Source of the DNA: Octopus vulgaris
Taxonomy: Eukaryota
Assembly (NCBI GenBank): GCA_951406725.2
Contig: OX597817.1
Coordinates: forward strand, 75,268,001 to 75,332,000
DNA: 64,000 bases
Direction: 5' to 3'
The position numbers and the translations under genes were made by a program. Positions 41,142 to 51,755 of the stretch are shown here, in pieces (positions within the stretch are counted from its first letter, which is position 1; each line of letters begins with the position of its first letter). The notes under the pieces were generated by a model. It made no database searches. It was not told the DNA's origin and was given only the letters and a program-made list of their open reading frames with translations.

Positions 41142-41860
41142 TATAGTATGTTTCAAAGAGAAAAGTGACTACACATAATATACATAAGGGAAAAATAAAA
41201 GGAGAAAATGTACATTATATATAAAAAGGTTTTTATGAACGGTAATGATAAATGTATAGAAATAGATGAACTAAGGTAGAATTAAGAAGTATAAAAGTAA
41301 TTATTTTGAATTGTTAGAGATTTAAATTGATACCGGTATCGTGAAAAGCTGTTATGATTTAAATATATATATTGGCTGTTTGCCAGCCTTGTCTGGCACG
41401 TAAAAAGCACCCACTACACTCACAGAGTGGTTGGCGTTAGGAAGGGCATCCAGCTGTAGAAACTGCCAGACCCCAGTTGAACCGTCCAACCCATGCTAGC
41501 ATGGAAAGCGGACGTTAAAAGATGATGATGATGATGATGATATGTGTGTGTATATATATGTGTATATATATATATATATATATACATATGTATATATGTA
41601 TATATATATATATGTATATATATATATATATATATATATATATATATATATGTATATATATATATATATATATATATATATATATATATATATATATATA
41701 TATATATATATATATATATATATATATATATATATATATATATATATATGTATATAATAATAAATATTAAGGAATAAATCCAAATTTACAGGGAAAAATC
41801 AGATTTAGGATTGAATCCAATTTTATAGTAAAATATTAAAACTTGCAAAGAAGGTTTTGA

Positions 41861-41914
41861 AACCACCTGAAGAATGTCTCATAGAAGTGCTGACACGAAA
41901 CGATCGTAGTGGTT
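41861..41914 (+). ncRNA. Minimal type I hammerhead ribozyme motif (Penelope pLTR-type)
   Basis: Stem I AACCAC/GTGGTT, core CTGAAGA, stem II TGTC/GACA (closing A-C mismatch), GAAA, palindromic mini stem III CGATCG, cleavage triplet GTA. Confidence 0.75.
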
Positions 41915-43411
41915 ATTTTAATTAATTTAATTTATATAAATTATTTTATGTATTGGCTTAAGTCTTTTTTTGTTTGATTTGCATAATAGTGGTTTTGTCT
42001 CTAATTTAATATAATATATATGTATATATATATATATATATGTGTATATATATATATATATATATATATATATATATATATATATATATATGTATATGTA
42101 TATATGTATATATATATATATATGTATATATATGTATATGTATATATGTATATATATATATATATTATATATATATATATATATATATATATATATATGT
42201 ATATATATATATGTATATATGTATATATATATATATATATATATATATATATATATATATATATATATATATATATATATATATATATATATATATATAT
42301 ATATATATATATATATATATATATATATATATATATATATATATATATATATATATATATATATATATATATATATATATATATATATATATATATATAT
42401 ATATATATATATATATATATATATATATATATATATATATATATATATATATGTATATATATATATATATGTATATATATATATATATATATATATATAT
42501 ATATATATATATGTATATATGTATATATATATATATATGTATATATGTATATATATATATATATATATGTATATATATATATATATGTATATATCATCAT
42601 CATCATTTAGCGTCCGTTTTCCATGCTAGCATGGGTTGGACATATATATATATATATATATATATATATATATATATATATATATATATATATATATATA
42701 TATATATATATATATATATATATATATATATATATATATATATATATATATATATATATATATATATATATATATATATATATATATATATATATATATA
42801 TATATATATATATATATATATATATATATATATATATATATATATATATATATATATATATATATATATATATATATATATATATATGTATATATATATA
42901 TATATATATATATATGATATATATATATATATGTATATATATATATATATATATATATATATATATATATATATATATATATATATATATATATATATAT
43001 ATATATATATATATATATATATATATATATATATATATATATATATATATATATATATATATATATATATGTATATATATATATATATATATGTATATAT
43101 GTATATATGTATATATATATATATGTATATATATATATATATATATATATATATATATATATATATATATATATATATATATATATATATATATATATAT
43201 ATATATATATATATATATATATATATATATATATATACATATGTATATATATATATATATATATATATATATACATATATATATATATATATACATATGT
43301 ATATATATATATACATATATATATATATATATATATATATGTAGGTCCCGGGTTGATTCGGAGTTAACCACAGTAAATAAGGTACTCAATACATAGCAGA
43401 GTAAAATTAAT

Positions 43412-48500: not shown

Positions 48501-49289
48501 ATATATATATACATATATGTATACATATATATATATGCGTATATATATATATACATATATGTATACATATATATATGTATACATATATATATATATACAT
48601 ATATGTATACATATATATATGTATACATATATATATATATACATATATATATATATACATATACGTATATATATATATGTATATATATATATGTGTGTGT
48701 GTGTGTATATATGCATGCATAAATATGCATGTATATATATCACCATCGTTTAATGTCCGCTTTCCATGCTTGCATGGGTTAGATGATTTTTGACTGAGGG
48801 CTGGTGAACCAGATGACTGCACCAGGCTCCAATCTTGATCTGGCGGAGTTTCTACAGCTGGATGCCCTCCCTAACGCCAACCACTCTGAGAGTGTAGTGG
48901 GTGCTTTTTACATGCCACTGGCACGGGGCCAGTCAGGTGGTACTGGCAATGACCTTGCTTGAATCTTTTTACACATGCTACCGGCACAGGTGCCAGTAAG
49001 GCGACGCTGGTAATGATCAGGCTCGAATGGTGGCTTTTACGTGCCACGTACACGGAAGCCAGTTAGCGCTCTGGCAAGGATCATGCTCAGATGTGCTCTT
49101 GGCAGCCTACTAGCATGGGCACAAGTGCCAGTAAGTCTGTGCTGGTAACGATCACACTCGAATGGTACCTTTTATGTGCCACTGGCACGAAAGCTGGTTA
49201 GCCGCTACGTATATATATCTATATATATCTTTGTATAAATATATATATATACATATATATGTGTATATATATATGTTTACATGGATATA

Positions 49290-51755
49290 TATCTATATGA
49301 TTAAGAGAAATAACCTCTATTAAGCAATTGAATAGTGGAAGACATTATCCATATTAAAGAGAAAAAATTTAAATACGCTATGATAAATATTATTTAAAAA
49401 ATCAGTAAATTCAACATTAAATCGACTATGCGTGTTTCATGACTACATGCTTAAATCGATAATAATAAAATCAATGCTATTAAAATTAATTCGATTTAGA
49501 AATATAGCCACTCTTTAGGTCTAAAAGAATAAAATAAACGTATTGTAACAATAAATAATCTAATAAAATTTAACAATATTAATGCAAAATAAAATCATAA
49601 CTTATCTTATTGAAGAATACCAGTTAACTAAAATTTTAAATGTCAAACTTACAACCTGGCGTTTCTAAGAAATTTATCACGTGAAAACATGATGTAAATA
49701 ATAACTATAGAATAATTAGATAGCAAAATGTATTTTAGCTGTGAAAATAAGAAATAAACTAGATGTAATATACCATGTACTAGAAAATTCTAAATTCTCA
49801 ATAATTTAAAACTAAGATACGTAAAATACATAAGATAAACTAAATTTCTATGACTTAATTTATATTCATCAATTTATTTATTTATTTTATAAACACCTTG
49901 GTTTAGTCTTATTCTAATTATATGATATTCACTACATAATCTACTGCCAATTACTCATTATACTACTACAAATTTTAACTACAACATAAATGAGGTTTTA
50001 TATATACTCAAATTAGCTAAACTTATATAAGTAATTTAACTTATGTCTATATTTAATTTTTCATTCATCTTGGGAATTAATCAATTTTTTATTATTAGAT
50101 AGTAATATCTCCATAAATTCATTTGTACATAGTAAACAAAAATTATTATCTATTCGATAAGATTTAGCTTTACAAACTATCTCCCAATTTAAATTATACT
50201 TAATTCCTTTAGATTTCAATTCCCATATATATTTTCTAAGGCCAGTAGAATTAATCAATGTTTTATTTTGAAATGAATGCATGTGTTGAGCCACCCTTAA
50301 TTTAATTTTATTAGAAGTCGACCCTACATAAATTGCATTTAAATTATAATTATTCCTATTAATATTATCATCAATCAAAGTCATTACACATTTATATACT
50401 ACATCATCCAAATTATGTTTATTGTTAAATTTACATTTTGTCTTATCTTTACTTGTACAATTAATTGTATTCTGGTCTTTATTATTATTGGAATAATTTA
50501 TATTATTGATTATTTAATTTGTTAATGTAAAACTTATTCAGCTTAAATTTATTAAAAGAAGAAATAATGTTACCTACATTATTAGTAGTAGAATAATCAA
50601 CTCTAAAATTATTACTATAAAAAATGTTATTATATTTTTTATTATATATAATGAATACTTCAATTAGTTTTAATATCTCTTTAATAATGTTTGTTTTAAC
50701 TTGAGCCCCATAAGGAGTAATTAACCAAATTTTGTCCTTATTATTAACATTATTTTTATTTATTATATTATTATATTTATTATTATCATTAAATGAATTA
50801 AATTTATCTTTTAGTCTGTTATTATATTTATTTTTTGTATTATCACAATACCTATTATTAAAAGCATAATTACCTGAATAAAACTTATCATATTTCTTAA
50901 TATTAGGTTTATTATTATAAATATCATAGGAAACATTATAATCTTTTATATTATATTTACAATTATTACAGAATTTAATACTATTATTGTATCCCGCATC
51001 CTGCAAGGCTTCATTATAATAAGTTGCGTGTTTTTGGAAAATCTCAAAATTGGAAGAAAGCATCGATATTCTTTATACCTATATTATCTATCAACGATTT
51101 CTTAATTGAAGGTGGGAGATTACTATTAGCATTAATATATCTAAGGTTTTCATTAATTTTATGGAATGGTTGGGTTTTACTTTTTATTAAATTGAAATTA
51201 GCATCTAAATAATTAACATTATAGTTCTCTTTATATATAGTAATACCTAATCCATATCTTTTAAAAAAACTATATAGTTTATTCTTATATCATTCTAGTG
51301 TTCTATCTCCAACTTTAATTTTTCTAATTGAAGTTCCGATAATAAATAAATACCTACTAAATCAGTCATCTGGGCAGAATCAGGTGCCCCCATAGGTATA
51401 TCAAAATAGTCTCTAGTATCCTTCCTAGCCCACAATTTATTATTATATCTAATCAACGATTTCCTAGCCGCTTTATCTACGTTAACTTCATCATAAGTCA
51501 TTCCAACCTTATTCATTGTATAAATTAGTGCCTTATTGAGTACAATCTCATTTATAGAATAATAATAATTATCTATATCTATTTGAGTGAATTTATATCT
51601 ATTTTTATCTTTAGTATTATTAAACCATTTTAAAGTATCATTAGTACTACTCCATAGTTTTAGATAATTAAGTTAATTTAATCTGTTAATATATTTATCT
51701 AAAATGATCTTACTTAATTTACCTAGATCTGATTTACATGGAAAAATAAGTTTAA
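49290..51755 (-). mobile_element. Degenerate, very AT-rich Penelope-like element
   Basis: Minus-strand ORFs carry FDIPMGAPDSAQMTDLVGIYLL (PLE RT), YYNEALQDAGY, and VVYKC...IYVGST...H..SF...YIWELK...CLLCTNE (GIY-YIG). A hammerhead remnant lies downstream. Confidence 0.85.
49424..49521 (-). ncRNA. Degenerate type I hammerhead in the terminal region of the minus-strand Penelope-like element
   Basis: Minus strand GAC-CTAAAGA-GTGGCTATA...TAAATCGA..TCGATTTA...TGTAGTCAT-GAAA-CACGCA-TA-GTC, with a long stem II and a G>A change in the core. Confidence 0.55.

Follow-up and report, generated by a model that had tools for sequence, protein, structure and literature searches.

What accounts for a cluster of four dissimilar hammerhead ribozyme motifs inside a single intron of an octopus gene? 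The question arises in a 64,000-nucleotide stretch of the Octopus vulgaris genome (GenBank assembly GCA_951406725.2, contig OX597817.1, positions 75,268,001 to 75,332,000 of the forward strand), hereafter the window, in which short islands and a Penelope-like element (PLE) lie among (TA)n arrays in the SIRT1 gene. An earlier note on this DNA had claimed that the four motifs have unrelated stems and that the fourth is attached to a PLE. Our analysis indicates that the motifs, designated HHR1 to HHR4 (Table 1), are likely the 3' ends of separate PLE families that inserted successively in the same microsatellite. HHR1, HHR2, and HHR4 likely belong to the Hydra clade of PLEs, and HHR3 is likely of a minimal type that works only as a dimer.

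Four hammerhead motifs in one SIRT1 intron

We searched the window with a type I hammerhead descriptor comprising stems I to III, an NUH site, and a CUGANGA core in which one mismatch was allowed. The descriptor recovered all four motifs on the strands and at the places claimed for them, HHR2 resolving to 43431–43473 on the minus strand. Their scores (13, 8, 7, and 10 for HHR1 to HHR4) place them as four of the top five among 14 matches in the window. With a descriptor composed when the motifs were already known, and a region (41750–49530) chosen in the earlier note, the four regional matches scoring at least 7 compare with a mean of 0.015 in 400 dinucleotide shuffles of the region's 3,360 non-microsatellite bases; four matches occurred in none of the shuffles. 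HHR1 is beyond chance by itself, its score being matched by none of 40 shuffles of the whole window. BLAST within the window revealed no similarity among islands A, B, and D and the PLE; the stems are therefore unrelated, as had been claimed.

The motifs resemble one another in their placement. Each is followed, on its own strand, by AT-rich sequence and then by TA repeats. The predicted cleavage site of HHR1 is GUA, with cutting after 41908, and the sites of HHR2, HHR3, and HHR4 are at 43433, 45531, and 49427; the (TA)n junctions lie 101, 91, 100, and 128 nucleotides away, respectively. Every motif thus faces a (TA)n junction 91–128 nucleotides downstream, an arrangement that gives it the likeness of a PLE 3' end. 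Nearness to (TA)6 or longer arrays is in itself weak evidence because the region was selected for (TA)n, and 10–20% of other positions lie equally close.

The host gene is identified by a protein frame at 60614–61138 with 98% identity to SIRT1 of Octopus sinensis and 97% to that of O. bimaculoides. SIRT1 exons on the plus strand flank the cluster on either side (Table 1), which therefore lies within one intron of ~19 kb, in agreement with the earlier placement in a host intron.

HHR4 lies in a Hydra-like PLE

The attachment of the fourth motif to a PLE was borne out. HHR4 is situated ~500 nucleotides downstream of a broken open reading frame (ORF) in which reverse transcriptase (RT) pieces with frameshifts and stops (51762–50533) precede a GIY-YIG endonuclease (EN; about 50480–50031). 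A full protein search with the last frame of this ORF yielded 2,250 relatives at E ≤ 0.001. The long relatives span RT and EN together (51762–50031), and P0114, P0161, and P0180 are colinear with the element. Pfam gave no match for 49299–51757, and a word-index search of proteins, queried with the Hydra-like EN, gave none either; the full search was positive.

The EN frame contains CLLC ahead of the conserved E and lacks the internal CxxC/CCHH motif. Among the 150 best relatives, 139 have CxxC ahead of E and three a CCHH-like pattern; the Hydra linker CxCX5C is found in 65 and CxH in 115. The truncation point of this copy lies before the RWK and DKT positions. A 3' hammerhead, here degenerate, together with TA repeats at both ends is characteristic of the Hydra clade. 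Judged by these sequence features the element is Hydra-like; its likeness to Hydra-1_Obim was assessed by eye. HHR4 itself combines a 10-bp stem II and a 3-bp stem I with a mismatch at 15.2–16.2 and the core CUAAAGA, and is predicted to be dead because of the G5A change in that core.

Other PLE remnants occur in the window. Two more minus-strand fragments resemble Hydra-like RT proteins (849–1010, E = 4e-7; 36509–36649, E = 0.002). A 5'-truncated PLE, presumably Neptune-like to judge by its CxxxxCxxC linker, begins right at a TA array on the plus strand (37722–38543, probably continuing to about 39570); its open 273-amino-acid frame covers RT-thumb, linker, and GIY-YIG (PF01541), with best relatives at 53–58%.

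HHR1 and HHR2 are carried by short islands, probable PLE stubs

Island A, which harbors HHR1, is likely the 3' end of a 5'-truncated PLE. The motif has a 6-bp stem I, an exact CUGAAGA core, a stem II in which an A·C mismatch (position 10.1–11.1) is followed by 4 bp, and a palindromic stem III, ACGAUCGU.

Island B consists of a stub and its 5' inverted copy. The two arms (43412–43459 and 43474–43521) form a 48-bp foldback of −87.7 kcal/mol, and the 14-nucleotide spacer between them contains the HHR2 core. In this motif, stem II begins with a U·U pair followed by 3 bp, stem III (ACAG/CUGU) closes a loop of 8 nucleotides, and stem I is just 2 bp long. HHR2 is predicted to be dead because the inversion left little of stem I's 5' arm and would tie up the GAAA strand. 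As far as their sequences tell, the architecture of both HHR1 and HHR2 is of the Hydra type. The earlier description of the islands as unique does not hold: island D is a member of a very large family, and for A and B BLAST found no second copy within the window.

Island C, a further (TA)n-bounded island, reads CUGAAGA and then GAAU, in place of GAAA, on its minus strand. Neither the descriptor nor folding yielded a hammerhead in it, and Rfam gave no match to a twister ribozyme there. Island C may be the truncated end of another ribozyme-bearing family. Derivation of island C or D from Naiad elements was considered and set aside, since neither resembled three octopus Naiad 3' ends by eye. Outside the window, the Naiad_Obim and Naiad_Ovul consensus 3' ends given in File S5 of PMC8557442 carry GAAAC ... 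CUGAUGA near the terminus, a permuted order relative to type I.

HHR3 represents an abundant family with U at core position 6

HHR3 folds into a 5-bp stem I, a 4-bp stem II, and a minimal stem III around the core CUGUUGA plus an extra A. We number this core C3 U4 G5 U6 N7 G8 A9, following the general convention. The hammerhead fold coincides with the local minimum free energy (MFE) structure at −8.4 kcal/mol. The motif shows the hallmarks of minimal hammerheads: a stem I within the range of 3–6 bp, an extra nucleotide after A9, a G10.1–C11.1 pair, GAAA, a palindromic 15.2/16.2 (in the family majority), and an NUH site. It departs from the CUGANGA core in having U6 instead of A6 and is hammerhead-like, not canonical. 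An alternative register, U3-U4-G5-A6-A7-G8-A9, was rejected; it disrupts stems I and II and would turn the variable site described below into position 4.

Part of 45032–45800 is present in 20 of the 24 sequencing runs listed, and at least half of its words in six, with three coded organism labels among them; none of the raw RNA runs contained the stretch. Four of the 24 were aligned to 45425–45790 at 80% likeness, namely the contig sets X1 and X8 (label A) and X3 (label B) and the raw reads X23. X8 may be RNA and is not taken here to indicate transcription. Family D is represented by 10,296 contig pieces in X1, 15,306 in X3 (both DNA runs), and 2,454 in X8. Summed contig depth, which is not copy number, is greatest on the motif: in X1 it reaches 3.6 million at 45529–45554, 1.2 million at 45594–45606, and 0.14 million at 45607–45619. 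The high-depth part (45431–45606) accordingly ends about 50 nucleotides upstream of the core, and depth farther upstream is about tenfold lower; 45607–45790 is still multi-copy and runs on into a pyrimidine-rich tract that reaches 46039. Loose ends gather at both edges of the motif, where the largest of the groups listed fall at 45523 (341 and 299 contigs) and at 45562 (188 and 208 contigs); the subfamilies therefore have the motif in common and differ outside it.

Within the motif the family varies little. At a variant threshold of 8%, just two positions of 45526–45558 are variable. At 45534, the majority letter (78%, 85%, and 95% of depth in X1, X3, and X8) creates GAAACGU, with a palindromic ACGU and a minimal stem III; the window copy carries the minority letter. 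The other site, 45554, is core position 7, where three letters occur at about 58/29/13% in X1, in keeping with its being the only unconstrained position of the core. Position 45555, core position 6, is U, and all other letters remain below 8% each in the three contig sets. U6 is the state of the family, not decay of the window copy, since no alternative at this position reaches the threshold; A6 sister families with diverged flanks may have escaped recruitment into the set. The stems are nearly invariant, with 6–12% variation at the outer stem I position 45563. This independent family-level evidence supports HHR3. A scan for the HHR3 pattern gave one match in metagenome contigs, a chance match in bacterial-looking coding DNA, and none in prokaryote genomes and viral contigs.

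The U6 change is expected, by analogy, to slow or stop cutting; a mutational scan found low activity for all single mutants of the CUGA region. That the fold is nonetheless kept in family D suggests either a slow ribozyme or a fold retained for a reason other than cutting. It is tempting to speculate, and we offer this tentatively, that family D is a Penelope-derived element, among the most abundant of octopus repeats, with a fixed CUG-U-NGA core, in which selection acts on the stems, GAAA, and the palindromic dimer site, leaves position 7 free, and does not require A6. Such an element would be either a dimer-cutting U6 hammerhead or a former ribozyme that now serves as a non-cutting fold for recognition or dimerisation. 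In both cases it would offer a natural test of the purpose of PLE hammerheads.

Origin of the cluster

Successive PLE insertion would operate as follows. The PLE protein would nick (TA)n, reverse transcription would begin near the RNA's 3' end and usually halt early, and only the hammerhead-bearing tail would then remain. Repetition of these events in one multi-kilobase TA array would produce a cluster of several families. Cutting and early-stop copying in this scheme are inferred from PMC8557442 and PMC11167929. The proposal of the earlier note, (TA)n targeting by several PLE families with stubs left behind in a host intron, is supported in this form; its further suggestion of retrozyme-like derivatives is not. 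As single copies the motifs would have little or no cutting activity. Most copies are probably not working ribozymes because of the short stem I and 48-bp hairpin of HHR2, G5A in HHR4, and U6 in HHR3.

Several results weigh against this reading. A link to an ORF is shown for HHR4 only and for none of islands A, B, and D, and none of the family D contig pieces joins the family to an RT/EN ORF. The PLE copy has the linker CxSX5C and C-terminal YxH, both altered from the CxCX5C and CxH of Hydra elements, and the descriptor found no hammerhead in the 3' region of the Neptune-like PLE. Copy number of islands A and B is known from the window alone. The abundance of family D comes from assembled contigs, the raw-read run X23 having placed just six poly-A-like or low-complexity reads on island D. 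The depth step at 45607 overlaps an indel-rich part of the window copy and may partly reflect divergence. Covariation in the stems, which the earlier note had expected among copies, did not appear in family D, where no compensatory change reached the 8% threshold in X1, X3, or X8. The covariance-type search proposed there was likewise negative, with no hammerhead family over any of the four motifs in targeted Rfam searches at E ≤ 10. Targeted Rfam searches of islands A to D and HHR4 returned no ribozyme family, and in the whole window the best 150 of 285 Rfam matches were microsatellite-driven and of miRNA type only. Finally, the whole window contains five matches scoring at least 7 against a shuffled mean of 1.15, and two of 40 shuffles contained at least four. 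On these whole-window figures, the descriptor by itself makes neither HHR2 nor HHR3 significant, and both need their context.

The strongest competing explanation holds that island D, and perhaps island A, is a SINE-like non-autonomous element of fixed length (~180 nucleotides) that uses PLE proteins. The fall in depth of about tenfold occurs at the single place 45607 with no taper, the subfamilies differ in both flanks of a common motif, and no ORF link is shown for island D. We nevertheless consider this explanation unlikely, given that the sequence beyond the step is multi-copy and continues to 46039, that the step coincides with the indel-rich stretch, and that dispersed single motifs usually derive from truncated PLEs in the account of PMC4209133. 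Successive insertion of PLE 3' ends is preferred over it.

It is far less probable that the islands are non-LTR retrozymes spreading through small circular RNAs. The islands are short non-coding units of similar size with type I hammerheads, and retrozymes, for which an origin from PLE terminal repeats has been proposed, also occur as monomers. Retrozymes, however, carry canonical motifs in tandem repeats of 150–450 bp, whereas each island here has a single motif, three of the four motifs are defective, and neither Tandem Repeats Finder (TRF) nor BLAST detected tandem hammerhead units in the window.

Chance matching of HHR2 to HHR4 in AT-rich DNA is slighter still as an explanation. It would fit the whole-window null, the negative Rfam searches, and a score-8 match with an exact core at 26236–26271 on the minus strand; that match has weak A-U/G-U stems and no supporting context, and we set it aside against a null of 0.55 per shuffled window. 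Against chance stand the regional shuffles, the orientation and spacing to (TA)n that the motifs share, the family-level conservation of HHR3 with position 7 free, and the location of HHR4 where Hydra hammerheads are found. Least probable of all is co-option of HHR1 for cutting SIRT1 pre-mRNA, for which its exact core, 6-bp stem I, and sense orientation would be suitable, but its stem II begins with a mismatch, its palindromic stem III favors dimers, and its hammerhead fold (−6.3 kcal/mol) is about 4 kcal/mol less stable than the local MFE structure (−10.5 kcal/mol).

Coordinates and other features of the window

The features of the cluster are collected in Table 1. TRF delineated (TA)n-type arrays at 41551–41767, 42009–45429, 46040–47277, 48353–48692, and 49210–49298. 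Related composite repeats (88–96% over 226–348 nucleotides) stand on either side of the Hydra-like PLE region at 47275–48333 and 51790–52833, the latter with an internal duplication of ~170 nucleotides and (TTA)n. A perfect 120-nucleotide palindrome at 56001–56120 has a (TA)21 array at its center. Elsewhere, the plus strand contains an RTE-like LINE with an RT domain (PF00078) at 30576–33013 and a remnant of a mariner-like transposase at 5192–6172.

Table 1 Positions of the hammerhead motifs, islands, and flanking features in the window
Feature	Position	Strand	Remarks
SIRT1 exon 5' of the cluster	35885–36139	+	tblastn with Octopus SIRT1, 100% over 85 amino acids
(TA)n-type arrays 41551–41767 and 42009–45429	41551–45429		Broken up by islands A, B, and C and a 50-nucleotide SINE-like piece
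Island A	41751–42009	+	(TA)n at both ends; SIRT1 pre-mRNA strand
HHR1, type I hammerhead motif	41861–41914	+	Exact core, palindromic stem III
Island B	43342–43521	−	Stub and 5' inverted copy
HHR2	43431–43473	−	Exact core, U·U at stem II base
Island C	45031–45153		(TA)n-bounded; CUGAAGA on minus strand, 45129–45123
Island D	45431–46039	−	Member of very abundant repeat family; 5' part pyrimidine-rich
HHR3, minimal type I hammerhead	45526–45563	−	
Hydra-like PLE	49299–51757	−	Decayed, 5'-truncated; TA repeats at either end
HHR4, degenerate	49424–49521	−	In 3' UTR of the PLE
Next SIRT1 exon, 3' of the cluster	55187–55339	+	tblastn, 100% over 51 amino acids

Comparison with known systems

In Craig et al. 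(2021, PMC8557442), the Hydra clade is distinguished by the CxCX5C linker, absence of CCHH, CxxC, CxH, hammerheads, and (TA)n insertion, and Hydra-1_Obim of O. bimaculoides is among the Hydra families. Published work also connects a cysteine linker in PLE endonucleases with insertion in (TA)n. The element at 49299–51757 shares with this clade a C-terminal GIY-YIG domain that lacks CCHH and has CxxC ahead of the catalytic E, a hammerhead near the 3' end, and insertion in (TA)n. HHR1, HHR2, and HHR4 share the style of stems II and III. In the hammerhead table of that paper, 14 of 26 Hydra rows begin stem II with U·U, like HHR2, and the norm is a palindromic stem III of 3–4 bp that closes a tiny loop, like that of HHR1. 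The window element differs from Hydra-1_Obim in being of another family, more AT-rich, and decayed, and the Hydra-1_oBim hammerhead as given there equals none of the four motifs by eye. In published descriptions, PLE copies are often 5'-truncated with 5' inverted copies and have a hammerhead in the terminal repeat; the inverted copy in island B is such a structure. For an anole element, PMC11167929 reports that catalytic mutants did not prevent insertion in vitro.

Non-LTR retrozymes (Cervera and De la Pena 2020, PMC7229834; bioRxiv 10.64898/2026.07.22.740005) are likewise short and non-coding, carry type I hammerheads, and are related to the terminal repeats of PLEs. The islands differ in their lack of tandem arrangement, their insertion in (TA)n, and their mostly defective motifs.

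HHR3 has its closest counterparts in the minimal hammerheads that Cervera and De la Pena (2014, PMC4209133) describe from metazoan PLE terminal repeats. That paper counts such motifs in the thousands per genome, as single dispersed copies that it attributes to truncated PLEs, and reports no activity as monomers and low activity as dimers in vitro. HHR3 shares with them the nucleotide after A9, G10.1–C11.1, the palindromic C15.2/G16.2 (in the family majority), a U-rich 5' flank, an AU-rich 3' flank, and dispersed single copies. It fits their published consensus save at position 6: all 44 minimal rows compared from Fig. S3 of that paper and all 26 Hydra rows of File S2 of Craig et al. have A6, whereas HHR3 has U6. 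The core variant noted in PMC4209133 is U3-A8. Natural changes at position 6 are described by Perreault et al. (2011, PMC3088659), where A6C and a nucleotide inserted behind A6 each give slow or low activity and U10.1–U11.1 occurs as in HHR2. These are single phage or bacterial cases, from a section that makes no mention of A6U; U6 is fixed here in a very large animal family.

The U6 family is the point for which we found no printed match; our literature search, which took in neither most subscription papers nor Figs S6/S7 of Perreault et al., supplementary file 1 of Cervera and De la Pena, the supplements of the bioRxiv paper, or the repeat library of O. vulgaris, any of which may be relevant, met no description of A6U or of the HHR3 motif. 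Family D is probably present in the O. vulgaris repeat library under some name, since PLEs make up 6.83% of that genome in 190 families. We attach modest weight to the U6 family: it would make the choice between cutter and structural signal directly testable for PLE hammerheads and, if our proposal is true, would mean that whole hammerhead families escape CUGANGA descriptors. The cluster itself adds one more case to biology already in print. It shows how octopus introns with long (TA)n arrays gather PLE ends, a pattern published at the level of families.

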